DNA of 64,000 nucleotides from an uncultured virus (IMG/VR IMGVR_UViG_3300046507_000471) (Duplodnaviria > Heunggongvirae > Uroviricota > Caudoviricetes): IMG/VR virus record IMGVR_UViG_3300046507_000471, one strand, 5' to 3'. Of the stretch, positions 937 through 28,568 are shown in pieces (the first letter of the stretch is position 1; every line of letters begins with the position of its first letter). The position numbers and the translations under genes are program-made. The notes below the pieces were generated by a model. The model had not been told where the DNA came from and searched no databases. It saw nothing but the letters and a program-made list of their open reading frames with translations.

Positions 937-954
937 GATGACACCTCATTTGTT

Positions 955-1039: not shown

Positions 1040-1049
1040 ATTCTGTTAA

Positions 1050-1125: not shown

Positions 1126-1136
1126 GTTGTTGTTAC

Positions 1137-1228: not shown

Positions 1229-1237
1229 GTTGTTACA

Positions 1238-1315
1238 TGGTAAGGGTGATTGGATTTGAACCAATGATCCTGCGGTCAAAGCGCAGTGCCTTAGGCCGGA
1301 CTAGGCGACACCCCA
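1238..1315 (-). tRNA. tRNA-Gln(TTG)
   Basis: Anticodon arm CTGCG-CTTTGAC-CGCAG; CCA end; U1:U72 mismatch. Confidence 0.9.
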
Positions 1316-1316
1316 A

Positions 1317-1523
1317 CTAAATCTGTACTTTACCCGGAAGTGGAAGCCCTGCAAAACTCGTTGCGAAGGTTTCTCCTGTTTCAGGGTTAACTTCTACCCC
1401 TACACTGATCTCATATCCAGCATACCTAAATCTATGTAAGGCTTCGCCTATAAGACCGAGATCCATTCCAGTGTAATAGTTATCTTCTTTACTACTGTGA
1501 AAGTATAACGTTGTTTGAATCAT
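1317..1523 (-). CDS. hypothetical protein (start moved to the ATG at 1523; the longer ORF overlaps tRNAs)
   Basis: MIQTTLYF... fills the gap between tRNA-Leu and tRNA-Gln. Confidence 0.65.
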   Translation of the reverse strand: MIQTTLYFHSSKEDNYYTGMDLGLIGEALHRFRYAGYEISVGVEVNPETGETFATSFAGLPLPGKVQI

Positions 1524-1537
1524 TGTACTTCTTTGTT

Positions 1538-1622
1538 TGGTAGGGCTGAACGGACTTGAACCGTTACGCCTTTCGGCACTGGCTTCTAAGACCAGCGTGT
1601 CTGCCAATTCCACCACAGCCCC
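1538..1622 (-). tRNA. tRNA-Leu(TAG)
   Basis: Anticodon loop CTTAGAA; variable arm GCC-GAAA-GGC; CCA end. Confidence 0.92.
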
Positions 1623-1630
1623 ATTATTCT

Positions 1631-1706
1631 TGGTGGAGGATACCGGGGTCAAACCGGTCACCTCCGCAGTGCAAGTGCGGCGCTCTATCAAATGAGCTAA
1701 TCCCCC
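1631..1706 (-). tRNA. tRNA-Ala(TGC)
   Basis: G3:U70 identity pair; anticodon arm CCGCA-CTTGCAC-TGCGG; CCA end; atypical T-loop TTTGACC. Confidence 0.9.
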
Positions 1707-1714
1707 AAATTTTA

Positions 1715-1793
1715 TGGCTCCACGTTAGGGTATCGAACCCTACTAGTCATTGATTAACAGTCAAGCCCGTGCACCATGCTCGGGTTCCGTGGA
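1715..1793 (-). tRNA. tRNA-Asn(GTT)
   Basis: Anticodon loop CTGTTAA; T-arm TAGGG-TTCGATA-CCCTA; G73-CCA; unusual D-arm. Confidence 0.82.
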
Positions 1794-1809
1794 ACTGTCA
1801 GTAAAGATA

Positions 1810-1859
1810 ATTTTAATACAGAACTTTCAATTGCGTCAACACTTTTATTAATTTATAAT
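1810..1859. promoter_or_regulatory. divergent sigma70-like promoters with overlapping -35 boxes
   Basis: - strand TTGACG(1839-1834)-N18-TAAAAT(1815-1810) toward the tRNA cluster; + strand TTGCGT(1831-1836)-N17-TATAAT(1854-1859) toward the HNH gene. Confidence 0.7.
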
Positions 1860-1885
1860 AGTATTAACAATGGAAGTTAATCTTT

Positions 1886-2263
1886 ATGAGTAAATGTGCA
1901 TGGCATTTATGCCTGAAAGAAGCTAAGCAAAAGTTCTGTAGTCCAGGATGTAAAAACAAATATCACGTCGATAGAACTCGTCGTAGATTAAAGCTTAGGG
2001 CAATAGAATACAAAGGTGGTAAATGCCAAAACTGCAACTATAACAAATGCGTAGCAGCTTTAGAATTTCACCACGTAGACCCGACTGAAAAAGATTTTGG
2101 ATTAGCACAATCCGGAATTACAAAGTCCTGGGAGAAAATGAAAATAGAACTAGACAAGTGTATTTTGGTCTGTGCTAATTGTCACCGAGAAATTCACTTT
2201 GAGTTGGACAAAATCGATAAAGATCCTATCGACAGAACTCAGGACGATGCAGTGCCTGCATAA
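1886..2263 (+). CDS. HNH endonuclease (homing-type)
   Basis: CxxC pairs; LEFHHVDP...CILVCANCHREIH. Confidence 0.85.
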   Translation: MSKCAWHLCLKEAKQKFCSPGCKNKYHVDRTRRRLKLRAIEYKGGKCQNCNYNKCVAALEFHHVDPTEKDFGLAQSGITKSWEKMKIELDKCILVCANCHREIHFELDKIDKDPIDRTQDDAVPA

Positions 2264-2483
2264 TCAGCTCAATATCTTTTGGGTCAGCATCGAGATTGAA
2301 CCCTTCACTACGTCCGTACAGGAAAAGCTTACCCTTATCATCGGCACCGATATAACCAGCGCCAGTTACTTTGCCTCCGCTGGTCCCACTCCTAAAAAAT
2401 AGAAACGCGTCTCGGTGATACAATGCAGCGGGAAAGATAAGTGCATGCTTATCATTTACAATAATGTATTTCATACCTTGCAT
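2226..2483 (-). CDS. hypothetical protein
   Basis: ORF in - strand array. Confidence 0.65.
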   Translation of the reverse strand: MQGMKYIIVNDKHALIFPAALYHRDAFLFFRSGTSGGKVTGAGYIGADDKGKLFLYGRSEGFNLDADPKDIELIMQALHRPEFCR

Positions 2484-2532
2484 TTTAATACCCCGTAGCG
2501 GATTTGATTATTGTGGTATGTACTGATTAGTT

Positions 2533-2778
2533 TTAGTGATACGTCGGCTTCACAGCCATACGCTCTTCTACCGGCATCGCTTCGATTTGCTTGCAGAGTT
2601 CTTCGTAAGCTTCAGGGTCTTCTTGTTCAAGCTCTGCAAGATCAAGAGGCTCACCTCCTTCAAAGAACGTACCGTCAGCGACTGAGGCTTCGATTTCTGC
2701 CATGATTTTTTGTGCTTCTTCTTCACCGACTTCCTCGATAAGAGATGCAACGGCGTGGGGTGCAAACACTACTTTCAT
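2533..2778 (-). CDS. acidic hypothetical protein
   Basis: ATGA overlap with the upstream small ORF. Confidence 0.7.
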   Translation of the reverse strand: MKVVFAPHAVASLIEEVGEEEAQKIMAEIEASVADGTFFEGGEPLDLAELEQEDPEAYEELCKQIEAMPVEERMAVKPTYH

Positions 2779-2924
2779 TTTTCGTCCCGTCCAAAAAAAT
2801 TAGGATCGCCATCATCCTTGAAAGCGTCCTCTGGTACATCATCGGCTTTGAATAGCTGAAAATCGCCGTCGTCTTTTAGCGACTTCCAACTCTCGTTTTC
2901 GTAAACGTCTTTAAACAGATTCAT
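2775..2924 (-). CDS. small acidic protein (49 aa, not in ORF track)
   Basis: MNLFKDVYENESWKSLKDDGDFQLFKADDVPEDAFKDDGDPNFFGRDEK; overlaps both neighbours. Confidence 0.6.
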   Translation of the reverse strand: MNLFKDVYENESWKSLKDDGDFQLFKADDVPEDAFKDDGDPNFFGRDEK

Positions 2925-3318
2925 ATTTCTTTAGCACTTCTTTGCTGAGATTATATTGCTCAGCAATACCGGTAAGGCCATCGAGCCATGCGTAAGGCCC
3001 ACTATCGTCATGAAGCGCTTGAAGATCATTAAGAAGAGGATTTACGTCATTTACATTTTCAAACAACTCCTGAACTTTAGGATACGATGAAAGAACATGG
3101 CTTGAAGTTTTATTCTCCATTTGCGGATCGTAAAGCTCGTCCGGAATCAGACATCCCACCGCACACATTCTTCCTTTTTCACCACGATACGCGCATCCTG
3201 AAGTAAACTCCTTAGGAAAATCCAGATCGTCTCCGCCAATCACTTTTTTGCTCTTTGCATTCTGCGTCAAGAGATGATCTGCAACTTTGTCAAAAGTCTG
3301 TTGAATCGTCAAAGCCAT
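2911..3318 (-). CDS. conserved phage hypothetical protein
   Basis: CAYRG..GRMCAVGCLI...LQALHD pattern typical of a widespread phage family. Confidence 0.75.
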   Translation of the reverse strand: MALTIQQTFDKVADHLLTQNAKSKKVIGGDDLDFPKEFTSGCAYRGEKGRMCAVGCLIPDELYDPQMENKTSSHVLSSYPKVQELFENVNDVNPLLNDLQALHDDSGPYAWLDGLTGIAEQYNLSKEVLKKYESV

Positions 3319-3334
3319 GATGACTCCAAATTGT

Positions 3335-3418
3335 TGGTCCGACTGACCAGACTCGAACTGGTATGCCCAAGGGCGGGAGGGTTTAAGTCTCCTGTGTATG
3401 CCATTTCACCACAGTCGG
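3335..3418 (-). tRNA. tRNA-Leu(TAA)
   Basis: Acceptor CCGACTG/CAGTCGG-A-CCA; anticodon loop CTTAAAC; variable arm GCCC-TT-GGGC. Confidence 0.88.
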
Positions 3419-9151: not shown

Positions 9152-9169
9152 TTATTTCTCCTTATTCAC

Positions 9170-9472
9170 AAGTGTTCCTTGCAACACGTTCCCGTTAGGG
9201 TAGTTCGGGTCGAGAACGGCCGTAGGCCGATTCACGTGGGGTCCCGAAGTTTAATGCCAGAAAGTTACTCGCTGGCCTTCGTTTTGATGCGGCTAAAACA
9301 AACAAATACTTGCAAGGCTACCGTAAAACATCTACGGTATTAAGTTACTACTGGGTAAACTCGTTGGTTGGTACCTGGTACTGGGTAAAACACTCTTTGA
9401 GTGTTCCCAGAGAGTAAAAGAGAAAGTTACTTTCTCCACCATCTGCTAGTTGCGAATGACTATACTTTACCC
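9170..9472 (-). ncRNA. candidate structured RNA or long 5' leader
   Basis: Begins just after the promoter motif at 9478-9487; at least 7 stem-loops; no - strand ORF of 60 aa or more. Confidence 0.55.
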
Positions 9473-9502
9473 AGGTACTTATACCATGATTACAGAGATT
9501 AT

Positions 9503-11938
9503 TTAAAGTCTCGGATCCAACTCTTTCTCTTTACTGAGCTGCGAAATCATCTTCACAACAAGCTCAGTTACCGCAGGGCCATTATCCGCTGAAAGCATCT
9601 TCATTGCGAGTTCATGTTCCCGGATAGAGACTTTGAGTTTGCCACCAATCCGCTTCTGTTTGCACAGGGCTTCATAGCGGCGTTTGTAGTCGTAACCATA
9701 AACGAGAGTCAGGTAATTTTCATTCCGGACTTTCATGTACGGTGCGATTTCATCATTCAAAGTCAATGGTTTGATAACGACACCCTCCATGTTCTTCTCA
9801 ACAGTGACTTTCTCGAAGAACTCTTTGGCCAGCTGAATTTCTTCTGGATCAGTTACATCGATTGTCAGGGCATCGTAAGTGCTCACACTAAAGAACGACT
9901 GGGCAAGCTCGATTTGAGTGTTAGTAACTTTACCATCACACTTCAGTATTGCAAAGGGGCTATAGAACGGTTCGCCATCTTGAGCGTAGATATCAAGCGT
10001 ATCACTGAACGTTTTAAGATCATTTTCCAACAGACCTTGAGCGTCAATTTTCTGCTTGAAGTCCAAGTTGTTAAACTCTTCGTCTTGAGCCAGCGTTGAA
10101 AGTTCGTAGTGTACAAGGCCTTCATACGCTTTGAACTGTTCTTCAACCAGACCCCTGCCGAGAGTTGTCCAGGGCTCAAGTTCCCCATCAAGAATAAGCT
10201 CGTCTTCCCATTCGAACCCGAGATCATCCAGTTGTTTAGGAATATTGTCAAGCATCGTCTGAAGCTGTTCTGTCATTCGAATCTTGAAACCATTCCGAGA
10301 AACAAGAAACGACTTCGAAGGATCCTTTTTGTACAGATATGCTTGACAACGAGAACCCATAAACTTAGGCTCGATAACAACGAACTGAACACCTCTACTA
10401 TTAAAGTAATCAAGCCCAGCTTCAAGACTTTCAATCTGAGTGTCCGTTGACGGAGCAGGGGCCATCGTACCAGAAATGTACTTAATGCCGTTCTTCAGCG
10501 TACGATTTAGAAACTTCATGTCGTCGGGAGACAACTTGTAGTCGTAGATGCTAAAAGGACGTTCCGGTGCATTGATAGGCACAGTCAGATTCGACTGCAG
10601 TTCTTTCTGATGTTCAACCAACGATTCAGTCTTGACTTCGTAGAACCCATACCGATTGTTCTTGTACACGAATGCCGTAAGCTTACCGCCATACACAGCG
10701 CCGGTGTCCAGGAAGATCTTGTTACGGAATTCCAGTTTATTTGCGTTGTGAGCTACGTGGCCAAATACGTGAAGGGGATGATTTCCCACGGCCTCTTCGA
10801 AGATGAACTTGTACGCTTCACGGTAGTCTTTGTCACGACGTCCGAAAAGATTACGCTGAGCCTTGAGTGCATCGCTGCTCATCTTACCGAGATACTTGTT
10901 CTCACAAGGAGCGTGAGTTACGTACACGGTCCGTACATCCCTTCCAATTACCTTCAGAAATGGAACTGAGTGATTATCGAACAGATTTACCACTCTAGCT
11001 GCAAGGCCAGGATCTTTCAAGAGAACCTTGAGTGAAGACATGTACTTTGCCTCCAGTTCAAGATCGGGGTTTTTAATCTCCCCTTTAATACGCTTTACAG
11101 CGTAGCTCTCATGATTGCCATGAACAATGATTCCGCCTTGCTCTACGAAGTTCTCGATGACGATGATCGTATCTTCAGTGTTTCCACCTTTATCGAGATA
11201 ATCTCCTACCAGTACTTCCTTAGGTGAGGTAGCATTACTATCACGAGATTTCATAAGCTGCATGTCAAGAGTCTGAAATGCAGTTACGTGCTCGTGTATA
11301 TCTCCGATAACTACAAGTTCTTCATGGAGTGGGAGATACAAATGGCTCTTTGCATAGATATCGAGGTCTTCGATTTCAACTTCGATACCAAACCAGTGAT
11401 TCGGATCACGTTCACGTATACGAATGTTACCGTCGTGCTCTTTGCGACCGAGATTAGGAAGAACTTTCTGTTTAAAACGAGCTGCGCTACTGTCTACAAC
11501 TAATTTTTCTGCAGGAGTAGATTCAGATGCATACGACTTATTGGTGTACTCGAAAGTAACCAATTCAGTACGGTACTCGTGCTTGTCTGCAATCTTCTTT
11601 ACTTCCTTACGAAACTGGTCATTCATACCAGTCGTATCGATGATCACAAACTCGCTGTTGATCGGGAACATGATCGCAGCTTCAAACTTCGCCATCAAAA
11701 CCTTGAATGCGGCCTCTGACGCCTCGCTCATGAGTCCGGAATACCGATGTAGCGACCCATGCGAATAGAGGCTCTGACGCTCTGCATCGGAGCTTATTAC
11801 CTTAACTACGCCAGGTACACCTACCTTGTGAAGCTGCTCATCGAGAGCAAGTTGGAACTGCCTTGCAAACGTGCTCTTACCGCACATCGAAGGTCCGACG
11901 AGAATAAAGACGGTATGAAGCTTAGTTTCGATTTTCAT
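9503..11938 (-). CDS. pnkp: bacterial-type Pnkp (polynucleotide kinase / metallophosphoesterase / RNA ligase)
   Basis: GPSMCGKST and SSDAER (kinase); GDIHEH, GDYLDKG, GNHE, FGHV, DTGAVYGGKLTA (phosphatase); EPKFMGSR, DGELEPW, EGVVIKP, KVRNENYL, terminal LDPRL (ligase). Confidence 0.93.
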   Translation of the reverse strand: MKIETKLHTVFILVGPSMCGKSTFARQFQLALDEQLHKVGVPGVVKVISSDAERQSLYSHGSLHRYSGLMSEASEAAFKVLMAKFEAAIMFPINSEFVIIDTTGMNDQFRKEVKKIADKHEYRTELVTFEYTNKSYASESTPAEKLVVDSSAARFKQKVLPNLGRKEHDGNIRIRERDPNHWFGIEVEIEDLDIYAKSHLYLPLHEELVVIGDIHEHVTAFQTLDMQLMKSRDSNATSPKEVLVGDYLDKGGNTEDTIIVIENFVEQGGIIVHGNHESYAVKRIKGEIKNPDLELEAKYMSSLKVLLKDPGLAARVVNLFDNHSVPFLKVIGRDVRTVYVTHAPCENKYLGKMSSDALKAQRNLFGRRDKDYREAYKFIFEEAVGNHPLHVFGHVAHNANKLEFRNKIFLDTGAVYGGKLTAFVYKNNRYGFYEVKTESLVEHQKELQSNLTVPINAPERPFSIYDYKLSPDDMKFLNRTLKNGIKYISGTMAPAPSTDTQIESLEAGLDYFNSRGVQFVVIEPKFMGSRCQAYLYKKDPSKSFLVSRNGFKIRMTEQLQTMLDNIPKQLDDLGFEWEDELILDGELEPWTTLGRGLVEEQFKAYEGLVHYELSTLAQDEEFNNLDFKQKIDAQGLLENDLKTFSDTLDIYAQDGEPFYSPFAILKCDGKVTNTQIELAQSFFSVSTYDALTIDVTDPEEIQLAKEFFEKVTVEKNMEGVVIKPLTLNDEIAPYMKVRNENYLTLVYGYDYKRRYEALCKQKRIGGKLKVSIREHELAMKMLSADNGPAVTELVVKMISQLSKEKELDPRL

Positions 11939-11940
11939 GC

Positions 11941-13257
11941 TTAGTCCTTGATTTTTGTAAGTACAATCATCGTTGAGGTGGAAACACCGTTAACCTTGTC
12001 GCCAATACCTTCTGTTGTCCAAACGATACCCTCGACACGGTTTTCACCTCTGACGATAGATGTGAACCAATTTGAAAATTCCTTGAAACCAGGTTCCCAC
12101 TTGTGGTCATCATGACGGAATTGACCTTCTTCCATCAGATAGTTCACGTTGAATTCTGCATTAGGAACGGTGATAACCAGCTTGTTGAAGTCAGTCTTGA
12201 GAACAGCTTGAATCAGAAGTTGTGCATCCCTCTTTTCCATGTGTTCAAGCACTTCAGTGATGAGTACATCAGCTCCATCGAATAGAGCGCTGCAATCGTC
12301 AACTGATTCAGGAGTTGCTGCTTCTTTGAAGGTAATATTCTCAACTCCCCTACCAGTGGCTTTCCCCACGGCATTCTCACGTACTTCTTCATCCGCTTCA
12401 TACGCAAGGACTTGTTCATACTTTGCACTGAGCGGGATCGAATAATTGAGTTCGCCGCACCCAATGTCAATGAGGACCGATCCTCCTCCCAAGTGCGGGA
12501 AGATAGCCTCTTTACGTTGACTGAGAGTGTCCCCGTGCCAGAGATCAATTTGGGGCGTATCGAGCAACGACTTGTTTTTAGCAAAGGTATCACGATTCGA
12601 GAATACATTCCGTTTAAAGAGGTATCGAATGAAGTACGGAGCATCGATGCGGTTAATTGCATTGATGTACTTCTCTACGTTATCACCCTTGAGGTTTATG
12701 TATATGCCCTTTGTCGAAACACAGAACATGAGAAAAATAACCATTGCTGCGTTCAACATGTGATGCACGCTAGGTCCGACAATGCGAACTTTGTAAGCAT
12801 GACCTGAAATCAGCTCGGAATGAAATCCATATCCTTCATCGAATCCGAACGTCCCATTGAAGTGTTGAGTGATGTGTTTCAGCATGCTAGCACTGCGAAT
12901 CTCAACCGTTGTCTCAAGCCAGGCGCTAAAAGGAGCAACAGTGTCTTCTTCCTGCAATTCCTTGAACGCCGTTGCAAGACAGTTCGTGATCAGACTGATC
13001 GGGAGATATGGTGAAGCATACCGCGTACGATCCAAGTATTCGAATTCCTGATCTCGACCTTCAGCAAACGAGCAGTGTAGAGCATGATCCTTGAACCACA
13101 ACCTAAAAGCTTTGTCTCCTTTCAGAAACCATCCGTATACTGAGCCTTGACGGATGGATTTCTTGAACGGATCTTTGGATTCACGAATCGTTGCAGGGTT
13201 TTTCTGAATAACCCATGAAAATTTAGGGTTCACAGAACCCAGAGTAAGAACCGACAT
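11941..13257 (-). CDS. hen1: Hen1 3'-terminal RNA 2'-O-methyltransferase (N-terminal ligase-activating domain plus MTase)
   Basis: IDIGCGE, TEVLEH, TVPNAEFN, FRHDDHKWE; N-terminal QKNP and YLDRTRYAS; 2 bp upstream of pnkp. Confidence 0.9.
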   Translation of the reverse strand: MSVLTLGSVNPKFSWVIQKNPATIRESKDPFKKSIRQGSVYGWFLKGDKAFRLWFKDHALHCSFAEGRDQEFEYLDRTRYASPYLPISLITNCLATAFKELQEEDTVAPFSAWLETTVEIRSASMLKHITQHFNGTFGFDEGYGFHSELISGHAYKVRIVGPSVHHMLNAAMVIFLMFCVSTKGIYINLKGDNVEKYINAINRIDAPYFIRYLFKRNVFSNRDTFAKNKSLLDTPQIDLWHGDTLSQRKEAIFPHLGGGSVLIDIGCGELNYSIPLSAKYEQVLAYEADEEVRENAVGKATGRGVENITFKEAATPESVDDCSALFDGADVLITEVLEHMEKRDAQLLIQAVLKTDFNKLVITVPNAEFNVNYLMEEGQFRHDDHKWEPGFKEFSNWFTSIVRGENRVEGIVWTTEGIGDKVNGVSTSTMIVLTKIKD

Positions 13258-13352
13258 TATTTAACCTTTTTGGAAGAGAGGTTTACAGGTAAAAACTTAG
13301 ACAATCTAATGACGGGACGAATCACCGTCCAATATCTTACTTATACCAACAA

Positions 13353-13538
13353 CTACAGGTATTGTGTGAAAGGTACAGTTGAATTTGGACGACGATCAAG
13401 TGTTGTGATTGGACCTTTGAATGAATCCTCTGCGTAACCGCAGGTTTTGCACTCAAACCAAATGGCAGTATTTGAAAGGCGTGACTTTTTTGTTTCGCCG
13501 CATTCGGGGCAGGAATCTAAAATGGGTTCAGTCTTCAT
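13353..13538 (-). CDS. small zinc-ribbon protein
   Basis: CPECG...CKTCG. Confidence 0.65.
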   Translation of the reverse strand: MKTEPILDSCPECGETKKSRLSNTAIWFECKTCGYAEDSFKGPITTLDRRPNSTVPFTQYL

Positions 13539-14545
13539 AATTTTGAATACGCCTCCTGAAAATACTTCTTTACGTCAGCTTCAATTTCTTCAGCAGACAT
13601 ACTGTCCATTGTCGTCCAATAAAGCCCGCCGTGCAAAGTCCTGTAGTTACCGAATAGAATACCTAACTCTCTATCAGTCAATCCTGTCCATTCAGAGATA
13701 AGAGTTCCGTTGATTTTCTTCTTAACCCTGTTGAGACGATGGTAGTCCATAGTAGCTATCGCATATGCTTTAACTGCTTCTGGAAATTCCATCTTTTCTA
13801 AAATTCTGATAAATCCAGAGTCTCTAGGAGAACGTTCATTGTTGAGAGTTTTACCCTTAAGCCAATCTAAGAAAAGCATGTACGTCTTACGTTTCTTATC
13901 TCGAACACGGCCTACAGCGTTGCGATTTTCAAGCAGATAGTTCCAAGTTGTAAAGTAAGGACTCGTTATAACATACTCGAAAATGGCATCCAGATTATCA
14001 AATCCAAGCGCATACCGTGCAGGGTCGTACCCGAGGAATTCCAGGGCTTCAGTGAAGTCTTGAGTAATGCAGATTTCTCTGACGAGTTGAGTGTCAACGA
14101 TGTACTTGTACCAGAGTCCGTCGTGACCAAACTTAAGACCGATGCCATGAGCAGTTTGACCGATAAGATTACCAAGATCATTGAAAGCAAAATACTTAAG
14201 GGCAAAGTCATGGATTTCTTCAGGTACGGTAATGAAATCAACTTGAAAAATGGTTCTCTTAAACATCAAACCAGTGATGTTTAAACCGAAAGAGATAACG
14301 TTGCTGTTAGTGTGAACCTCTGGGGAATTAAGAACCTTCTCACAAAACTCTCTGAGAGTACCAACATCAATACCAGAAATTAGAATGTCGAGGTCTCCGA
14401 AACTTTCTTTCTCTCTGTATGCTGGAATTACTGAAACTATCGCCTCAGGAAAGGCCTCCTTAAGAACTGTGCTTGTACCGTCTGCTACGAAGTCGTAGTA
14501 TTGCTTCTCCAGACGGACAGCGTTGCTGACTGCATTGCCGCCCAT
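13535..14545 (-). CDS. Pol beta-superfamily nucleotidyltransferase
   Basis: KESFGDLDILI and QVDFI catalytic Asp triad pattern. Confidence 0.7.
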   Translation of the reverse strand: MGGNAVSNAVRLEKQYYDFVADGTSTVLKEAFPEAIVSVIPAYREKESFGDLDILISGIDVGTLREFCEKVLNSPEVHTNSNVISFGLNITGLMFKRTIFQVDFITVPEEIHDFALKYFAFNDLGNLIGQTAHGIGLKFGHDGLWYKYIVDTQLVREICITQDFTEALEFLGYDPARYALGFDNLDAIFEYVITSPYFTTWNYLLENRNAVGRVRDKKRKTYMLFLDWLKGKTLNNERSPRDSGFIRILEKMEFPEAVKAYAIATMDYHRLNRVKKKINGTLISEWTGLTDRELGILFGNYRTLHGGLYWTTMDSMSAEEIEADVKKYFQEAYSKL

Positions 14546-14552
14546 GATTTCC

Positions 14553-14771
14553 TCACTTCTTTGCTGCTACAAGATCAGAACCAAATTTGATGATGCCGAT
14601 TACTGCCGTTACTGGTAGCGTGATTGGCCAGAATAGACATGCGAATGCCACCAAAAGACCAACCAATACCAATGTCAAATCACTGTGTGGTTTCTCGCTT
14701 TTCTTATTGGCTCCAACGATCAGAACCATAGCAAGAACCCACAACAAAATACCGAAGCCCAAATAATCCAC
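14553..14771 (-). CDS. small membrane protein
   Basis: Two hydrophobic segments. Confidence 0.7.
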   Translation of the reverse strand: MDYLGFGILLWVLAMVLIVGANKKSEKPHSDLTLVLVGLLVAFACLFWPITLPVTAVIGIIKFGSDLVAAKK

Positions 14772-14772
14772 G

Positions 14773-15498
14773 TTAATTCTCCTTTACGATCTTATCGACC
14801 TTATCCAAAATAGAAAGAACCTTGTCAATGTCGAACTTGTCTTCAGTGCGTGCGCCTGATTCAAGGTCGATCCATGCATAGCCGTTTTCGACATCCCTGT
14901 GACTCTGCAGAAGCTCAAACACTGTTTGCTCTACGTTGTAAACGTTGATACCGCCTGCATATCCAACATCAAACCGACTAGCCCAAGGTTCTGGAATATC
15001 CGGCCAACCTGCATCCTGCCAGGAAACACCCTTGCCGCCAGAAGCGTCAAGAAGAATCTTCAAATCAGGAGGGACTTCGTCTTCAAACATGCCATTGAGA
15101 AGAATGTCCGTGTTACCACTGTACTGAACGATTACAGTACTCTTTTCACTCTTTGCGAATTCAAAGATCAAGTCTTTGTTTTCAGCAGTCAAGAAATTAA
15201 ACTGAACTGCGTTGTAGCCTAGCGTTACTTCGTTTTCGAAATGTTTCCAAGAAGACAGAAACGCCTCTACCGATTTGCCACAAAGATGCGCAGCAAGAGT
15301 GTAGTATTCACCTCTATCGTTCGTTGCCCAGTACAGCTTCTCCCTCCACTGCGCTGTTGGGTAACGAGGTTGGCCCTCACGGGATTTAGAAAATAGAATG
15401 CCCCATTCAACGAATGGATATTCACGACCGATATCATCCAGAATCGACGGATCAACTTCGTCGTCTGCGCCGGTAATAGTAACGCCTAGTTCAATCAT
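14773..15498 (-). CDS. PRAI/TrpF-like TIM-barrel protein
   Basis: LLDASGGKG, GYAGGINVYNV, WIDLESGART...KFDIDKV. Confidence 0.7.
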   Translation of the reverse strand: MIELGVTITGADDEVDPSILDDIGREYPFVEWGILFSKSREGQPRYPTAQWREKLYWATNDRGEYYTLAAHLCGKSVEAFLSSWKHFENEVTLGYNAVQFNFLTAENKDLIFEFAKSEKSTVIVQYSGNTDILLNGMFEDEVPPDLKILLDASGGKGVSWQDAGWPDIPEPWASRFDVGYAGGINVYNVEQTVFELLQSHRDVENGYAWIDLESGARTEDKFDIDKVLSILDKVDKIVKEN

Positions 15499-15507
15499 TG
15501 TTATTCC

Positions 15508-15954
15508 TTACGCTAGAGCTGCGGCTTCCGTAGCCAATTTATCTGCAAACTCGTTCCACTTATTTCCCGAATGGCCTTTTACCCATTGCCATTTAAGCGG
15601 AGGAGCCTTTTCTACCAAAGAGTCTAGTCGTTTCCAAAGATCCTGGTTCTTTACAGGCTTCTTATTGGAGCCAATCCAGCCTTTAGCTTTCCAACCCTTA
15701 ATCCATTCTGTAATACCTTGCATGACGTATTTGGAGTCAGTAATGATAGTAATATCCTTTTCTCCGTCCAGCATCTCTAATGCAGAAATAACAGCCATTA
15801 ACTCCATACGATTATTTGTCGTATCTTTTTCCCCACCATTACCACTGTGCAGATACTCCCCATCATTATAGGTGAATACATATCCGTGCCCACCCTTACC
15901 AGGGTTATTAAGGCATGCACCGTCAGTGTAAATTACTACTTTATCTACTTCCAT
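15508..15954 (-). CDS. rnhA: ribonuclease HI (start probably MEVDK at 15954)
   Basis: YTDGACLNNPG, TNNRMELMA, TDSKYV, WVKGHSGNKWNEFADKLA. Confidence 0.95.
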   Translation of the reverse strand: MEVDKVVIYTDGACLNNPGKGGHGYVFTYNDGEYLHSGNGGEKDTTNNRMELMAVISALEMLDGEKDITIITDSKYVMQGITEWIKGWKAKGWIGSNKKPVKNQDLWKRLDSLVEKAPPLKWQWVKGHSGNKWNEFADKLATEAAALA

Positions 15955-16588
15955 TATTTCTTTCGCCAAAAGCGTGTTGATTGAGACGTTTATCTTCTTC
16001 AAAAGCTCGTTCTACAGACCATCTATTTTCTATTATCCTGCTATACATCAATTTTCTATCCAAGTGTAATCTATTACACCAGTTCACTAGCAAATCAGTT
16101 TCGCCTTTATATGTCAGCTTCACCGTAACGCCTCTATTAAGCGTCTGTTCTAAAGGAGTAGACCATCTACAATTTTCAAGGCTGTATTCTTTATCGGAGT
16201 CTATCCTATCCAAAGTCATACCCTCCGGACGTTCGCCCATATCTGCTAAGAAACCTTCGAACGATAACCATTTTTCACATATAAAGATGCCTCTGCCCCC
16301 ATACAAATAGTAGTTATCGTCGTTAGGATTTAAACATCTACTTTTCATTTTTGACCAGGAAGTGTAAGTCCTGGAGGTATGCATCCCATGTTTTAAATTT
16401 GACGTTCTACCTACACATCCGCATGATACAGTTGCCCCTGATTTCAAGGCATCTCTACTTATAGATTTATCAATGCCACATTGACATTTGCAAATCCACA
16501 TTCTACTGTCTCCGCTTTCGAAGTCCGGTTTAATAACCGTCACCTTCCCAAACACTTGACCGGTTATGTCTTTCCGGACTTTCCACAT
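15941..16588 (-). CDS. HNH homing endonuclease
   Basis: FGKVTV, CKCQCG, SCGC, YGGRGI, TLDRID, ENCRW. Confidence 0.88.
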   Translation of the reverse strand: MWKVRKDITGQVFGKVTVIKPDFESGDSRMWICKCQCGIDKSISRDALKSGATVSCGCVGRTSNLKHGMHTSRTYTSWSKMKSRCLNPNDDNYYLYGGRGIFICEKWLSFEGFLADMGERPEGMTLDRIDSDKEYSLENCRWSTPLEQTLNRGVTVKLTYKGETDLLVNWCNRLHLDRKLMYSRIIENRWSVERAFEEDKRLNQHAFGERNNGSR

Positions 16589-16589
16589 A

Positions 16590-18299
16590 TTACGCCTTCT
16601 TTTTAAATAACATATCGTTAATTGCTTCTTGAGTTACTCCACGATGGACTTGTTCCACCTGGCCCCAGTTAAAACCGATTTCACCTTCAACACCAATCGG
16701 AAGAGTCAGCCAATCGAAATTCTCTACTGGCCATTCATTCATGTAATAGAATGCCGTCTCGATTACTTCTGCCGCACGCTCAATCGGTACTTCGAATTCA
16801 ACTGAGTCATACACAGTACAGATACTTTTACAACGAGGGTCGATCTTTTGAATTGCTTGGTTAAGATGCGCAAATGTAACTAGACCAAGAGTCGAAGTTG
16901 CACTTTGAATCCGTACATTCTGAGCATTGCGCAGTGATGCGTTATAAGCTGCGGTCTTCTTGAATACTTCCTGTGCTACATACTCATGTTTGTACTGACC
17001 AAATGGTGTCCAGACTTTCTGGTTCCAACGTGCCATATTGTGTGACTCTTCAATATAATCCTTAACTCCAGGGTATGCATTGAAGTACATATTAACCAGA
17101 CGTTCAGCTTCAGACTTGTCCAACTGCAACTGCATTGCAATACCACCTACTGAAGAACCATAAAGTATCGAAAAAGTTAAAACTTTTGCAACTTGTCGCA
17201 TGCGTTTGTATTCTTTTTGGAGAGAATTACTCTTATCTTCCAAAATATGAATATATTCTTCGTATGACACGCCCATCATCGCACTGGCAGAATACGAGTG
17301 AAAGTCCAAGCCCTCGGCAATCGCCTTAAGCATATTCTTGTCACGACAGATTGCGCCTAGAATCTTAACTTCAGCAGAACTAAAGTCAAAGGCAATAAAT
17401 ACATTGCCGCTATCAACGATGTAGCACTCTCGTACATTGTATCCATGTTTAGGACGTGGAAGCTGCGTAAGATTAGGACTGTCGCCAGTGATCCGAAAGC
17501 TGCTAGTGCCAAACATGTTATAGCTAGGATGAATCCGACCATCACGCTTAACAAAGTCCTCCACATACGTCTTGATGAAAGTATTGTGAACACTATTAAT
17601 ATCCTTTCTCTTAGCCATATCTGCAAGGAACTGCAGCTTAGGATCTGGAGCATCATACTGGTTAGCCAGAGGATTTAACCCTGCCAGTGTGAGCAATGCC
17701 GCACCGTCAGTTGCATCATCACCAGACTTTGTCTTAAACGGAGCTACGAATCCAAGTTCTTCATAAAGCAGCTTACCAACTTCTGTACCAGAGTCTAGAT
17801 TGATTCTTTTACCGATTGCAGTAAAGATTTTTTCATCAAACTCTTCAACTTCACGAACCATCTGTTCAGAGATCTTGCGGTTACGATCAACGTCGTATGC
17901 CATGCCATTGATTTCAAGATCGATAATGAACTCGTGACAGAACATTTCTGTGTTGATCACTGATTCGATGATCGCCGGAGCCTTTGCCTTAATCGGCGCT
18001 CCATTGGGACCTACAATCTGCACTTCTTGAGGTTTTACTAAATCAGACCATAGACCTGTCAGGACTTCTGAAGTGACAATGTTATCAATACCTGCATAGA
18101 CGTAAAGATCTTCACTATCATAATCTTCATACGTTCTATAAATCTTCTTCTCAGCTACAGGTTCTTCAACCTTCGGTTTAGGCTCTGCTTTCTTGCGAGT
18201 CTTTTTCTCAACAGGTGTTTCTCGTACTTCAGCAATGACCTTCTCTTCTAGTACTTGCTCAGTCGAGGTCTTTGGCTTTGGGTCAATACGCTTAATCAC
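16590..18299 (-). CDS. family A DNA polymerase, C-terminal part (ExoIII motif plus polymerase domain)
   Basis: YAGID (ExoIII); GRIHPSY; PNLTQLP; DFSSAEVK (A); RQVAKVLTFSILYG (B); TVYDS (C). Confidence 0.92.
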   Translation of the reverse strand: MIKRIDPKPKTSTEQVLEEKVIAEVRETPVEKKTRKKAEPKPKVEEPVAEKKIYRTYEDYDSEDLYVYAGIDNIVTSEVLTGLWSDLVKPQEVQIVGPNGAPIKAKAPAIIESVINTEMFCHEFIIDLEINGMAYDVDRNRKISEQMVREVEEFDEKIFTAIGKRINLDSGTEVGKLLYEELGFVAPFKTKSGDDATDGAALLTLAGLNPLANQYDAPDPKLQFLADMAKRKDINSVHNTFIKTYVEDFVKRDGRIHPSYNMFGTSSFRITGDSPNLTQLPRPKHGYNVRECYIVDSGNVFIAFDFSSAEVKILGAICRDKNMLKAIAEGLDFHSYSASAMMGVSYEEYIHILEDKSNSLQKEYKRMRQVAKVLTFSILYGSSVGGIAMQLQLDKSEAERLVNMYFNAYPGVKDYIEESHNMARWNQKVWTPFGQYKHEYVAQEVFKKTAAYNASLRNAQNVRIQSATSTLGLVTFAHLNQAIQKIDPRCKSICTVYDSVEFEVPIERAAEVIETAFYYMNEWPVENFDWLTLPIGVEGEIGFNWGQVEQVHRGVTQEAINDMLFKKKA

Positions 18300-19545
18300 T
18301 TTCTACCTCATCTTCTTCAGTTTCTTCAGTTTCTTCGGCGGCATTCTTAGTTAGTTTAGGTAGGAGGTCTTCATAACCACCTAATCCAGTCCAAGGAACA
18401 ATATCCCAGACTGCAGTTTTCAAACTATAAGTACCCTGCGCACCACTATCAAGACTATGAAGAACAAGCAAAGTATCAAAAGCCATATTTTTCACCCGTA
18501 CTTTGGTAGTGTGCCAAATGTACAAGATATCGAACTTAATGTTGTGCCCTACCTTCGGTCTTGGCCCTTCTAAGAAAGGAGTAACCAAAGCCCATGCTTC
18601 GTCTCCACTATACATCTTGTTCTCACGATGCCACAGTGGAACTACCAATGCTTTAACTTCTTTGTCAATTGGATCTCGATACCCGAACTGAATACAAAGC
18701 AGTTTGGCATTTTCAGCCAGCCCGTCTAAGCTGGTCGTTTCAGTATCTAGACTGATGATTGAGTTTGCTGGCAAACCATCAATGATAGCCATGAACTCTT
18801 TTACTTCTTCAATGCTTCGTGCAATGCGAATACGGTTCTGTTTATAAAACTCAATCGCTTCAGCTAACGTAGGCGGTTTAAGATGACCACGAGCCATTGC
18901 TGCGGCCTTCTTGAAGTCTCGGAGAATCACACCATACAACTCTTGTCCCCAGAAGGCTCCAGAGGCGTTCTGACGAATCATCGTCAATGCTCTTGGATGG
19001 ATTGTGATAACTACGTTATCAACATACTCACCACGATTACCAGTATTGCTGTGTTTCTTATAACCCAACGCTTTAGTCACAACTGTTGCCAGACTGATGA
19101 TGACCTTTGGTTTACAACGATCTATCTCAGCTAAAAGATAAGGTTTACATTTCATTAGCCGTGTTGCAGTTGGTGCTTTCCCTTTTGGAAAGTCTTCTTC
19201 TGTCGGACTACATTTAAGCAAGTTCACCAATCGGTACTTCAACGTTCCAAACCCTGCTTGTTTACAGAGATGGTGAATGATATCCTGCTGGATCTTTTCT
19301 TGCTGACCCTCTACTCTATCCCACTTCCCAGCGGGTGCCGCGTGATCCTGGATAATCAGAATATCAACTTCGTTTTGAGCAAGGCGAACAGCATCATACG
19401 ATTTACATTTGAGCTTACAGACTTTGTCGCAATACGTCTTACTGATCTTGCTAAAGTCTTCCTTGCTATGGATTGCCACTTCTACAGACGTTGTAATCTT
19501 TCTCTCATACAACTCGTTCAGTGGAAGATCTGAGATCTTCGCCAT
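18292..19545 (-). CDS. family A DNA polymerase, N-terminal part (UDG-like domain plus ExoI/ExoII)
   Basis: NLLKCSP...KCKPYLLAEI...KPKVIISL...TIHP (family-4 UDG-like); LDTETT (ExoI); GHNIKFD (ExoII). Confidence 0.85.
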   Translation of the reverse strand: MAKISDLPLNELYERKITTSVEVAIHSKEDFSKISKTYCDKVCKLKCKSYDAVRLAQNEVDILIIQDHAAPAGKWDRVEGQQEKIQQDIIHHLCKQAGFGTLKYRLVNLLKCSPTEEDFPKGKAPTATRLMKCKPYLLAEIDRCKPKVIISLATVVTKALGYKKHSNTGNRGEYVDNVVITIHPRALTMIRQNASGAFWGQELYGVILRDFKKAAAMARGHLKPPTLAEAIEFYKQNRIRIARSIEEVKEFMAIIDGLPANSIISLDTETTSLDGLAENAKLLCIQFGYRDPIDKEVKALVVPLWHRENKMYSGDEAWALVTPFLEGPRPKVGHNIKFDILYIWHTTKVRVKNMAFDTLLVLHSLDSGAQGTYSLKTAVWDIVPWTGLGGYEDLLPKLTKNAAEETEETEEDEVESD

Positions 19546-19610: not shown

Positions 19611-20093
19611 TTAGTGACTATAGTACGCTGAAACCATCATTACTGGTTCCGTGTAGCTTATACCATACTTCTCACAAAAATTGCGCAGCCTATCGATATC
19701 ATCTTGTGTTACGCCAAGACATTCTTTATCAAGCTCTGCTGGTTCCCAGATTTCTCCTAGAGATAAATTCTTAGTATACAGAATATAACCAGGATAGTCA
19801 CACGTGCCATACTTGGTAATACCTACTCCATAGTTTTCGAAAGCGTTATTTTTCCGCTTCCAGTACTCGCTGTATTCCTTGCTATTTTTCTCACAGTACT
19901 CTTCTTCAGGGCGCTTAATATTGAGTTCTTTTAAAATCAATTCCTGAATAGCATCTTCGACACCATCTTCAAGCTCTTCTATACCCAGAGCATTAGCGAG
20001 AGCTTTCTCGAATTCTTCGAACTCTTCCCATGCACTATCTGAACTACCTACATTTATCCCGAAGGACAAATTCATATGAATATCCAAACCCAT
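19611..20093 (-). CDS. hypothetical protein
   Basis: 1-bp overlap with the Thg1-like gene. Confidence 0.7.
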   Translation of the reverse strand: MGLDIHMNLSFGINVGSSDSAWEEFEEFEKALANALGIEELEDGVEDAIQELILKELNIKRPEEEYCEKNSKEYSEYWKRKNNAFENYGVGITKYGTCDYPGYILYTKNLSLGEIWEPAELDKECLGVTQDDIDRLRNFCEKYGISYTEPVMMVSAYYSH

Positions 20094-20923
20094 TACTTAC
20101 CTTCATGAAAAATCTTGAATGAACCTTGACTTACCGGCAGGGACGTAAGCTTAGGAACTTCCTTTATAACCTCGATTGAACTTCGCATTACTTCTCTTGA
20201 AGCTGGTTTGTTAGCATCGGGAATCAACGACCAGGTATGATCATCGATAGCCACCAGCCTCTTTACCTTCCTAGTGAACGTACCTTGCCTGAAGCATTCA
20301 AGGTAGTCGTAGAAGTTAATGCCTACTTCGTGAAGCATTTGAATCTTCTCAGCAGTGTTTTTATGAAGCAACTCTGAGTTGTTGAAGACCGAGTGCGCAG
20401 CCATGCTGACACTGTTCTTACGAGCATCCCACTGACGCCAAACAAAGTAATCATACGCCTGATCCCATTTTGGGAATTGAAATACACGAGCGTCGAACAC
20501 AGGACGTGCTGCGAACTTGTTTGGCAAAAAGCCTTGAAGATAGCTGTTAAAGATCACCGAGCACTTAGCAGCGTACACGCTTAGCCATTTCTGGACCTTA
20601 CCATCAAAGTTCAGTTGTGCGTTAGCATCGCTGTTAAACCAAAAAAGACTTATCTCATCGCTCTGGTGGTATGCCAGATCAGGATTCAATTCTTTGATAA
20701 GGTCATCCACGGTACATTGGAACGTCTGGGCCAGCTCATAATCGAAGGGTTTAGTAAGACCTTTGGTGAATGTATGGAACGAGTTACCATCGAAGCGAAT
20801 TACAGTCGGTAGGCCTGGCATCAAGTACTCGCTGTTGTACTTCTTCTCGTATCGCTTCATCTCATCACCAAGCGTTTGAAAATCAAGGTGACGAATCTGT
20901 TCTGCTATTTGTGTTTGTGACAT
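20093..20923 (-). CDS. thg1: Thg1-like tRNA(His) guanylyltransferase / 3'-5' polymerase (start MSQTQ at 20923)
   Basis: RFDGNSFHTFTK, PFD, YHQSDEISL, FDGKVQK, FDARV, WRQWDARKNS. Confidence 0.9.
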   Translation of the reverse strand: MSQTQIAEQIRHLDFQTLGDEMKRYEKKYNSEYLMPGLPTVIRFDGNSFHTFTKGLTKPFDYELAQTFQCTVDDLIKELNPDLAYHQSDEISLFWFNSDANAQLNFDGKVQKWLSVYAAKCSVIFNSYLQGFLPNKFAARPVFDARVFQFPKWDQAYDYFVWRQWDARKNSVSMAAHSVFNNSELLHKNTAEKIQMLHEVGINFYDYLECFRQGTFTRKVKRLVAIDDHTWSLIPDANKPASREVMRSSIEVIKEVPKLTSLPVSQGSFKIFHEGK

Positions 20924-20934
20924 TTCAAGAATCC

Positions 20935-20967
20935 AAAAAAAACCGGGGTCTTCAAAGAAGCCCCGGT
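20935..20967 (-). terminator. strong intrinsic terminator
   Basis: ACCGGGG-CTTC-TTT-GAAG-A-CCCCGGT followed by a 7-8 T run. Confidence 0.8.
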
Positions 20968-21094
20968 CAAAGACCAATTGACTGTTAAGCCAATGCACTA
21001 CCAAGAAAGGGAATCAACTTAGAGATGACGATCAGTGAGTTTCTTCCATACTTTACTTATACCAAATTACCCTCAGATTAGTGATTTTTGGATA

Positions 21095-28566: not shown

Positions 28567-28568
28567 AA

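Follow-up and report, generated by a model that had tools for sequence, protein, structure and literature searches.

This locus raises the question of whether an uncultured soil phage with a genome of about 150–180 kb, bearing an intact pair of the genes hen1 and pnkp, possesses a working RNA repair system, and what damage such a system would repair. The window, i.e., the whole analysed stretch of 64,000 nucleotides from the IMG/VR record IMGVR_UViG_3300046507_000471, suggests that the pair is probably a functional, phage-maintained Hen1–Pnkp operon, serving as a counter-defence that repairs and immunises cut tRNAs.

Organization of the locus and its phage context

Genes hen1 and pnkp are encoded on the minus strand (Table 1), and their open reading frames bear out the original prediction that they lie 2 bp apart. 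Translational coupling of the two genes is likely; spacings from −4 to +12 nt between hen1 and pnkp are common among relatives.

Table 1. Features of the hen1–pnkp locus (positions in the window).
Feature	Position	Strand	Details
hen1	11941–13257	minus	438 aa; predicted N-terminal ligase-activating domain and C-terminal RNA 3'-terminal 2'-O-methyltransferase
pnkp (P0002)	9503–11938	minus	811 aa; predicted kinase, metallophosphoesterase and ligase in a single polypeptide
hen1/pnkp junction	11939–11949	minus	AAGGA ribosome-binding site of pnkp (11945–11949, within the 3' end of hen1), TAA stop, 2-nt spacer (GC, 11939–11940), then pnkp ATG
Hen1 N-terminal domain	12559–13248	minus	residues 4–233; Pfam PF22032 Hen1_N, 3.5e-45, profile positions 2–218 of 222
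Hen1 methyltransferase domain	11971–12519	minus	residues ~247–429; TIGR04074 match 247–429
Polynucleotide 5'-kinase domain	11534–11911	minus	residues 10–135; Pfam AAA_33
2',3'-Phosphoesterase domain	10655–11314	minus	residues 209–428; Pfam Metallophos 209–398; 4j6o alignment
RNA ligase (adenylyltransferase) domain	9590–10486	minus	residues 485–783; Pfam PNKP_ligase, 8.1e-26
Promoter-like motif GGTATAAGTA	13338–13347	minus	80 nt 5' of the hen1 ATG; context TTGGTATAAGTA
Terminator-like hairpin with U-rich tail	9419–9437	minus	65 nt past the pnkp stop

The promoter-like motif GGTATAAGTA, in its context TTGGTATAAGTA, looks like an extended −10 element. With no more than one mismatch it occurs 10 times in the window against 2.5 expected, a count reached by none of 100 shuffles; all 10 matches are located on the minus strand, mostly 5' of minus-strand genes. 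The operon had been credited with its own promoter motif, and the recurrent motif is real, whereas a generic sigma-70 search for two hexamers detected no promoter within the spacer upstream of hen1; the motif is accordingly treated as a −10-only (TGn-TATAAG-like), putative promoter element. The terminator-like hairpin is likely the 3' end of the operon; in four related phages, five of its eight pairs stay paired despite two-sided changes.

That the carrier is a phage, as had been supposed, is confirmed by window genes for RNR, split DNA polymerase, primase, helicases, portal and an RNAP-like protein, to which the nearest record, belonging to the same phage, adds genes of terminase and tail fibres. 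Of the tRNAs of the phage, which number at least 21, eight are encoded in the window. A Thg1-like gene, located 7 kb from the pair, stands behind the same promoter-like motif, and the same phage has genes for PTH2, Ro60/TROVE, a protein with an RF-1 domain and a stand-alone HAD phosphatase of the SAK type (HAD_SAK_2). The tRNAs and these proteins represent a heavy investment in the translation apparatus. A gene of an HNH endonuclease is present in the window (15941–16588), and GIY-YIG and NUMOD3 proteins are encoded by the same phage.

The gene order orf241, orf72, orf336, orf61, hen1, pnkp, orf116, nrdA is conserved in five related IMG/VR loci, with which Pnkp shares 64–74% identity. Compared with one related locus, L008, identity is 74% for Pnkp, 94% for nrdA and 92% for orf116, and dN/dS is 0.15 for hen1, 0.13 for pnkp and 0.045 for nrdA. 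The synteny and dN/dS values of about 0.13–0.15 indicate that hen1 and pnkp are maintained.

Domains and catalytic residues of Pnkp and Hen1

Pnkp has the domain order of bacterial Pnkp, i.e., kinase, binuclear metallophosphoesterase and ligase (Pfam 10–135, 209–398 and 485–783). The family profile matches the kinase (4gp7, 2.3e-8), phosphatase (4j6o, 4.1e-14) and ligase (3ty9, 6.5e-36) of Clostridium thermocellum Pnkp colinearly. The kinase contains the P-loop 15-GPSMCGKST-23 (K21, S22) and the Asp-x-x-Arg motif D51-x-x-R54, the roles of which are described in PMC3902929; residues G20, K21, D51 and R54 are invariant among 20 relatives.

In the phosphoesterase, motifs DxH, GDxxDKG and GNHE were found, along with H342, H394 and D411. 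Nine phosphatase residues, D187, H189, D233, R237, N263, H264, H323, H376 and D392, are described as essential in C. thermocellum Pnkp (PMC3675462). Eight of them are identical in the phage protein (D213, H215, D246, N275, H276, H342, H394 and D411), and the catalytic set is complete except for the ninth position, where K250 replaces Arg237. Lysine occupies this position in all 30 rows of the divergent lineage in which the motif was found, the window included, while arginine is retained in both canonical sequences with the motif found. As reported in PMC3675462, the R237K change in the C. thermocellum enzyme increased the kcat of the cyclic phosphodiesterase, and mutations of Arg237 abolished the Mn-dependent monoesterase step. 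With K250 in place of Arg237, full phosphate removal, which Hen1 requires, is thus not assured.

The ligase contains motif I (K525-F-M-G), D584/E586, E718-G-V-V-I-K723 and K736-V-R738; among 20 Pnkp relatives K525, D584, E586, E718, G719, K723, K736 and R738 are invariant. In alignments, K525-F-M-G-S-R corresponds to KHMGSR in C. thermocellum Pnkp and to KYMGS in Rnl, and the motif I lysine, K525, is presumably the adenylylation site. The closest solved ligase is Rnl: the sequence search gave 1.1e-37 for Rnl 4xru_B and 2.2e-14 for the C. thermocellum ligase 3ty9, and the family profile gave 7.3e-62 for Rnl. Between the nucleotidyltransferase motifs the domain is about 40–50 residues shorter than the ligases of Rnl and C. 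thermocellum, and so the Hen1-binding insert may differ. In the bacterial system this insert module docks the N-terminal domain of Hen1 and controls sealing; the corresponding region is present in the phage protein, in shortened form.

Besides the TIGR04074 match, a methyltransferase domain in Hen1 is also given by Pfam. The SAM motif D264-I-G-C-G-E and residues E335, E338 and H339 (E-x-x-E-H) and R381, H382, D384 and H385 (RH-x-DH) are present and invariant across 23 Hen1 sequences; the residues of the two latter motifs are those which we take to be metal ligands. In a phmmer search, the protein was aligned over its full length with Capnocytophaga Hen1 4xrp_C (residues 3–435 against 2–435, E 1.3e-28), and its methyltransferase domain aligns with 4xrp_C and with the methyltransferase of C. 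thermocellum Hen1 (3jwi/3jwg). Judging by sequence, the protein combines the unique N-terminal domain of Hen1 with a C-terminal Mn-dependent 2'-O-methyltransferase. All five domains were identified with strong E-values, the Pfam scores lying well outside chance, and the retained catalytic residues are invariant over 20 Pnkp and 23 Hen1 relatives. The predicted three-domain Pnkp and Hen1 with recognisable motifs are accordingly confirmed by Pfam domains and catalytic residues, and the HMM check proposed at the outset recovered both PNKP_ligase and Hen1_N.

Relationship to known systems and occurrence in phages

The pair resembles the bacterial Pnkp–Hen1 system, for which repair followed by methylation of the junction is established chemistry, as had been stated (PMC3675462); the bacterial evidence in the cited papers is in vitro. 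In both, hen1 precedes pnkp, co-oriented and tightly spaced, as in four canonical loci (L059–L062), and the adjacency and shared orientation characteristic of the bacterial system (Figure 1 legend of PMC3675462) were found in the phage. Other likenesses are the order of the three Pnkp domains with a binuclear metallophosphoesterase as the phosphatase, and a two-half Hen1 with the same catalytic motifs. The window pair differs in being phage-borne, in an identity of only about 20–24% to canonical Pnkp, in the lineage-wide lysine in place of the phosphate-binding Arg237 and in the shorter ligase around the insert.

On NCBIfam equivalog models, Pnkp scored 147.1 bits on TIGR04075 (cut-off 750) and Hen1 56.1 bits on TIGR04074 (cut-off 340); seven bacterial and viral relatives scored 117–205 bits on TIGR04075, and Paenibacillus Hen1 scored 67 on TIGR04074. 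Since these scores, like those of the relatives, fall below the cut-offs, the pair represents a separate lineage of the same architecture and is no equivalog under the NCBI rule. In the tree of ligase domains, canonical Pnkp sequences are split off by a long branch (support 100/100), and the window belongs to a viral-only clade of 10 rows (99/98). Viral and bacterial rows are interleaved in the tree, the divergent lineage having members of both kinds, from which it follows that transfers have occurred.

The closest solved relative of the phage ligase and Hen1 is the Pnkp1–Rnl–Hen1 heterohexamer of Capnocytophaga gingivalis (PDB 4XRP/4XRU; PMC4411300). As described there, Rnl is a separate protein, Pnkp1 resembles the T4 enzyme and has a phosphatase of the HAD type, and hen1 is remote from the other two genes. 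The phage instead joins its ligase to the kinase and metallophosphoesterase in one polypeptide and has hen1 next to pnkp. Assignment to the Pnkp1–Rnl–Hen1 type was rejected on these three grounds. Phage T4 Pnkp and Rnl1 likewise heal and seal tRNA cut by a host suicide nuclease, PrrC (PMC4411300, PMC7824862), but their phosphatase is of the HAD type, their ligase is Rnl1, and no methyl mark is added. A T4-type system was also rejected, since Pfam found neither HAD_PNKP nor Rnl1 domains in the phage Pnkp. No HAD_PNKP domain and no other RNA ligases (Rnl1, Rnl2, RtcB) were found in 37 further open reading frames of the window and 78 of the 103 remaining ones of the phage record.

The survey of the pair in phages, which the original prediction had proposed, revealed Hen1 beside a Pnkp relative in 25 of 29 IMG/VR loci, all chosen by their Pnkp relative; among 50,697 deposited phages, rearranged versions occur in five. 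The latter are Xanthomonas phage XacN1 (ORF197–199), Stenotrophomonas phages RAS14/CM1 and Vibrio phages RYC and vB_VpaM_sm033, all large. In each, Hen1 (27–30% identity) adjoins a Pnkp-type ligase, but none of the five has a three-domain Pnkp. XacN1, likewise with numerous tRNAs and with Thg1-like genes, encodes Hen1 after a small kinase and before a ligase-only protein; by comparison of layout alone, the RAS14 locus is similar. RYC and sm033 encode a ligase-only protein and, after it, a single protein in which Hen1, a kinase and a HAD phosphatase are fused.

Novelty of the pair, implied originally, was overrated: in addition to these counts, a phage PNKP/Hen1 pair was already named, as tRNA repair, in the XacN1 genome paper of 2018 (PMC5852040), the only literature mention of phage Hen1 that was found. 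The phage pair is neither unique nor a new kind of system; Hen1–Pnkp kits are recurrent in phages, and the window is thus a good example and no first. A narrower novelty stands: a full-length three-domain Pnkp is absent from deposited phages, as none of 15 and none of 203 matching records reach at least 80% coverage.

Proposed function and alternatives

If the phage pair works as its bacterial counterparts do, the Pnkp kinase would phosphorylate the 5'-OH of broken RNA, and the metallophosphoesterase would strip the 2',3'-cyclic phosphate. Hen1 would then add a 2'-O-methyl group to the new 3'-terminal nucleoside, and the ligase, presumably in complex with Hen1 and activated by its N-terminal domain, would seal the ends. 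The methylated junction would resist transesterifying RNases. The most likely substrates are host or phage tRNAs cut in the anticodon loop by abortive-infection or ribotoxin nucleases. Counter-defence against tRNA nucleases is plausible, and the precedent of T4 Pnkp/Rnl1 against PrrC, with the wider logic of phage RNA repair, is established, as discussed in a review of jumbo phages (PMC7824862).

The pair might instead belong to an RNA quality-control kit that maintains the many tRNAs of the phage or other RNAs in the course of infection, for instance when stress or spontaneous breakage has damaged them, and that opposes no specific host nuclease. The at least 21 tRNAs, PTH2, the RF-1-domain protein, HAD_SAK_2 and Ro60/TROVE of the same phage are consistent with such upkeep, as is the Thg1-like gene behind the same promoter-like motif; of 27 records searched for Ro60, eight contain it, and six of these (G001 and G305–G309) belong to the close lineage of the window, in which it is retained. 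This reading overlaps with counter-defence, and sequence hardly separates them, but it appears unlikely: the 2'-O-methyl mark is sensible mainly against recurrent site-specific cleavage (PMC3675462), and phage RNA repair systems studied to date, as presented in PMC7824862, counter host nucleases. It is very improbable that the pair undoes cuts made by the host-shutoff RNases of the phage or by co-infecting elements, or that it heals DNA ends. Several nucleases and homing-type endonucleases, including the HNH endonuclease, are encoded in the window, with GIY-YIG and NUMOD3 proteins in the phage, and structures of the C. thermocellum polynucleotide kinase used a DNA oligonucleotide acceptor (PMC3902929); however, no phage RNase was identified in the genes analysed, nothing nuclease-like is linked to the pair in the conserved neighbourhood, and Hen1, an RNA ribose methyltransferase, has no role at DNA ends.

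A passenger origin, i.e., a recently captured bacterial operon that has no role in infection or is decaying, would fit the interleaving of viral and bacterial rows in the ligase tree and the lower identity of Pnkp to its L008 counterpart relative to nrdA and orf116. It is extremely improbable given the intact frames, retained catalytic residues, low dN/dS, position shared by five related loci, well-supported viral-only clade and the pair's own recurrent phage promoter-like motif. A bolder proposal, which we consider decidedly unlikely, is a third, largely virus-borne Hen1-dependent system with fused Pnkp, Rnl-like ligase and Lys-type phosphoesterase, in which the SAK-type HAD phosphatase would finish healing, possibly with Ro60 as a platform, and the bacterial copies would derive from phages or mobile elements. 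If the K250 enzyme acts like the R237K mutant, a second enzyme must complete end healing, and the SAK-type HAD phosphatase stands out as the candidate for this step. Such a system, if real, would be a multi-protein phage kit for tRNA rescue and immunisation.

Research on host defences that cut tRNA, including PrrC, RloC, PARIS, retron effectors and bacterial Schlafens, is very active, and the known phage answers to such defences are spare tRNAs and heal-and-seal repair of the T4 type. The window pair is a compact, complete two-protein version of Hen1–Pnkp repair, suited to expression and assay, and the lineage-wide change of arginine to lysine in the phosphatase active site may alter the chemistry of healing. 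If counter-defence is its role, repair combined with methylation would be a third phage answer, leaving tRNA permanently resistant.

Layout and catalytic residues of the hen1–pnkp pair

The proposed close arrangement of hen1 and a three-domain pnkp was confirmed: the 3' end of hen1 reads AAGGAC TAA and is followed by GC and the ATG of pnkp, leaving a spacer of 2 nt, and the ribosome-binding site of pnkp sits within the end of the upstream gene. The idea that a hen1-first gene order is an unusual trait was rejected, since canonical bacterial loci are ordered likewise.

HMM search recovered both the Hen1 and the Pnkp ligase domains. By Pfam, P0001, the product of hen1, matches Hen1_N (3.5e-45) and has a methyltransferase domain, while P0002, the product of pnkp, matches AAA_33 kinase, Metallophos and PNKP_ligase (8.1e-26). 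The top NCBIfam matches, bacter_Hen1 for P0001 (56 bits vs. a cut-off of 340) and bacter_Pnkp for P0002 (147 bits vs. 750), are far under the cut-offs; seven of seven relatives rescored with the Pnkp equivalog TIGR04075 gave 117–205 bits. Among structures, P0001 best matches Capnocytophaga Hen1 from end to end (1.3e-28), followed by the Clostridium thermocellum Hen1 methyltransferase (2.4e-10), and the P0002 ligase best matches Rnl of the Capnocytophaga Pnkp1–Rnl–Hen1 complex (1.1e-37), with the C. thermocellum ligase at 2.2e-14. A profile built from 20 Pnkp relatives is colinear with the C. thermocellum structures of kinase (2.3e-8), phosphatase (4.1e-14) and ligase (6.5e-36). Prediction of a complex between Hen1 1–245 and Pnkp 465–811 from single sequences gave no answer (score 0.00, partner fold uncertain) and speaks neither for nor against a complex.

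The kinase, phosphoesterase, ligase and methyltransferase motifs named in the original prediction are all present, with a single change, Arg237 to K250. The kinase of P0002 contains the P-loop 15-GPSMCGKST-23 and D51-x-x-R54; according to passages of PMC3902929, both motifs have been shown to be indispensable to the C. thermocellum enzyme and to T4 Pnk. Alignment of the phosphatase showed eight of the nine residues listed as essential in C. thermocellum (PMC3675462), namely, D213, H215, D246, N275, H276, H342, H394 and D411. The ligase contains K525-F-M-G (motif I), D584/E586, E718...K723 and K736/R738, and its insert region is shorter. In P0001, residues D264-I-G-C-G-E, E335-x-x-E338-H339 and R381-H-x-D-H385 are invariant across 23 Hen1 sequences. 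Judged by its sequence, the operon is a real, intact phage Hen1–Pnkp pair of a divergent lineage.

Coordinates of the features in the window and in stretches L048 and L049 of G001, the nearest IMG/VR record, and at the related bacterial locus L038
Feature	Location	Strand	Remarks
hen1	11941–13257	minus	438 aa, P0001
pnkp	9503–11938	minus	811 aa, P0002
GGTATAAGTA promoter-like motif	13338–13347	minus	ahead of hen1
GGTATAAGTA promoter-like motif	21054–21063	minus	ahead of Thg1-like gene
GGTATAAGTA promoter-like motif	9476–9485	minus	spacer after pnkp
Hairpin with U-rich tail	9419–9437	minus	3' of pnkp; compensatory changes in relatives
Leader	9152–9502	minus	350 nt, ORF-free, pnkp to orf116/nrdA
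DNA polymerase matches	13535–14545, 16590–18299, 18292–19545	minus	three ORFs
HNH endonuclease gene	15941–16588	minus	among polymerase ORFs
RNA polymerase matches	51777–55181, 58121–59290	plus	two large proteins
Thg1-like gene	20093–21004	minus	tRNA-His guanylyltransferase family
tRNA cluster	11–3418	minus	8 genes
tRNA cluster	L048 (G001 28000–47999)		20 genes, 7 common to both
CUA-anticodon tRNA	L048 6545–6620		ARAGORN 'Pyl'; Rfam tRNA, 69 bits
PTH2	L048 2272–2682		peptidyl-tRNA hydrolase
RF-1-domain protein	L048 13568–14182
'Swiss-army-knife' HAD phosphatase	L049 14168–14995		RNA repair
Ro60/TROVE-vWA	L049 17536–19191
hen1 of Paenibacillus sp. 1P03SA	L038 1726–2991		tblastn match full length

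Phage genome and transcription signals

Phage-type genes of the window encode ribonucleotide reductase, primase, helicases, exonuclease, a Thg1-like protein and a head decoration protein, as well as a DNA polymerase whose fragments flank an HNH endonuclease; a portal match is weak. G001, a 117-kb contig of the same phage estimated as 88% complete, has 53% of sampled words in common with the window, encodes P0001 and P0002 at 100% identity and reaches 87 kb past the window start. A scan of its genes, covering 78 of 103 ORFs of at least 90 aa, added terminase, tail-fibre proteins, PTH2, an RF-1-domain protein, a 'Swiss-army-knife' HAD phosphatase, Ro60/TROVE-vWA and NAD salvage genes. A bacterial or plasmid origin of the contig was rejected on the grounds of the phage replication genes, portal, terminase and tail fibres, and the same evidence, from the window for replication genes and portal and from G001 for the other two, bears out the assignment of the pair to a phage.

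The close relative G306 is a complete genome of 181,435 bp with terminal repeats. No DNA near-identical to the window was found in deposited phages, and the window DNA is present in 24 listed runs, all rhizosphere metagenome DNA with no RNA run among them, possibly of one campaign and including two that may be the source of the DNA. The polymerase gene at 13535–19545 looks split or invaded. The two large plus-strand proteins match phage RNA polymerase beta subunit families, and a multisubunit RNA polymerase encoded by the phage is suggested.

The claim that the pair has its own promoter motif stood in part. The motif GGTATAAGTA (context TTGGTATAAGTA) occurs 10 times at no more than one mismatch against 2.5 expected, a number reached in none of 100 shuffles; all 10 occurrences are on the minus strand, mostly preceding genes, and one lies ahead of hen1. 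A generic sigma-70 scan, on the other hand, called no promoter upstream of hen1; in this region the scan performs at chance level (7 promoter-like sites vs. 7.1 expected and 4 terminator-like sites vs. 4.6).

The leader downstream of pnkp contains the motif, the hairpin and a multi-stem fold. Its DNA is 72% conserved in four related phages, with pairing maintained via changes on both sides at 13 of 53 predicted pairs; Rfam gave no match in the pnkp–nrd spacer, even with the E limit relaxed to 1. The leader, which precedes the phage nrd genes, is a candidate for an unnamed regulatory RNA.

Distribution and phylogeny

Hen1 was found in 5 of 50,697 deposited phage records (RYC, sm033, XacN1, CM1 and RAS14; 27–30% identity), and these five phages also contain matches to the Pnkp ligase domain. 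Coverage of at least 80% was reached in none of the 15 deposited phage records matching the window Pnkp, nor in any of the 203 matching a canonical Pnkp. RYC and sm033 encode a ligase-only protein followed by a Hen1–kinase–HAD phosphatase fusion, and XacN1 a small kinase, Hen1 and a ligase-only protein, whereas the window contains separate hen1 and three-domain pnkp. Burroughs and Aravind (2016; NAR 44:8525) may have catalogued phage Pnkp–Hen1 before. In a full-text search of the literature on phage Hen1, the XacN1 genome paper was the only one recognized, other papers being judged by titles and abstract openings. In its passages on these genes (2018; PMC5852040), ORF197 is annotated as PNKP and ORF198 as a Hen1 homologue, and the bacterial repair complex is cited; by Pfam, ORF197 is ligase-only. 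The jumbo-phage review PMC7824862 contains zero mentions of Hen1.

Surveys of IMG/VR and bacterial genomes with two peptide patterns, which are not exhaustive, gave 29 IMG/VR loci, one of them from the window's own phage. The three-domain protein is a single full-length match in 21 of these; Hen1 lies inside the 4-kb flanks of 25, in 20 of them immediately upstream and in the same orientation, and was not seen within the flanks of the other four (one at a contig end, two with kinase–phosphatase only). The same patterns matched 12 bacterial loci (Paenibacillus, Saccharibacillus and several MAG phyla), with Hen1 near 11: nine have it immediately upstream in the same orientation, one has it some 250 nt upstream, and in another it is encoded on the opposite strand. 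Protein search gave at least 1984 proteins at E ≤ 1e-5 (8000 candidates scored), some from Mb-size and others from 90–180 kb contigs. The pair is rare and rearranged in deposited phages and frequent at the 29 IMG/VR loci; its kind is already known, with XacN1 as a precedent, and the operon is not a first. A full-length three-domain Pnkp was found in no deposited phage.

Variants of the locus were also observed. In the IMG/VR loci L029 and L033, a separate kinase gene and a 646-aa phosphatase–ligase gene have hen1 upstream, so phages rearrange the module. In L034 and L035, from a giant-virus bin, as classed by IMG/VR, and a 73-kb contig, Hen1 adjoins a Pnkp-like protein with kinase and ligase matches and an unmatched middle. 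The hen1 frame of Paenibacillus sp. 1P03SA stays open for only 21 codons from the expected start, although its tblastn match is full-length; the hen1–pnkp locus is otherwise conserved, and either a premature stop or an error in sequencing may be the cause.

The ligase-domain tree comprised 37 rows, with nine near-duplicates and one fragment (10 in all) left out and Capnocytophaga sequences not included. Four canonical bacterial Pnkp are separated from all others by a long branch (100/100), and bacterial and viral rows are interleaved in the remaining clade, in which the window falls among 10 rows that are exclusively viral (99/98), with the related IMG/VR locus L008 nearest (73%). The order orf241, orf72, orf336, orf61, hen1, pnkp, orf116, nrdA is conserved across five related loci. 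Compared with L008, dN/dS is 0.15 for hen1, 0.13 for pnkp, with dS near saturation, and 0.045 for nrdA. By these sequence comparisons pnkp evolves faster than its neighbours, yet under clear constraint, and the operon is maintained by the phage.

Possible RNA-repair companions and the phosphatase lysine

At least 21 tRNA genes were found in the phage, one with a CUA anticodon, which may be an amber suppressor. Rfam search of the window and the rest of the phage record detected tRNAs only and no Y RNA. The Thg1-like gene is preceded by the promoter-like motif that also stands ahead of hen1; its relatives are present in 151 of 50,697 deposited phage records, chiefly of very large phages, and in 10 of 26 IMG/VR records with a Pnkp relative, several of them close kin. 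TROVE was found in 8 of 27 related viral records, mostly of the window's own lineage.

In the established bacterial pathway, the 5'-phosphate is supplied by the kinase. After the phosphatase has cleared the 2',3'-cyclic phosphate, the 2'-OH at the 3' end is marked by the Hen1 methyltransferase, and the ligase, unlocked by the Hen1 N-terminal domain, seals the break; the sealed, marked junction withstands transesterifying RNases (PMC3675462; PMC4411300). The phage pair has all the sequence features needed for this pathway, save the Arg-to-Lys change; its ligase insert region is also shorter. The substrates would probably be tRNAs cut by host defence nucleases, as suggested by the T4/PrrC precedent, the phage RNA-repair logic outlined in passages of PMC7824862 and the heavy load of tRNA and tRNA/ribosome rescue genes.

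K250, at the position of C. thermocellum Arg237, is the sole departure from the essential phosphatase set. Lys occupies this position in 30 of 30 divergent-lineage sequences with a motif-pattern match, the window counted, and Arg is kept in both canonical Pnkp sequences with such a match. In C. thermocellum Pnkp, R237K raises the kcat of the cyclic phosphodiesterase, and the Mn-dependent monoesterase step is lost in arginine mutants (PMC3675462). Given these mutant data, complete 3'-end clearing by the phage phosphatase is not a given, and the lineage-wide active-site change from Arg to Lys is worth a test.
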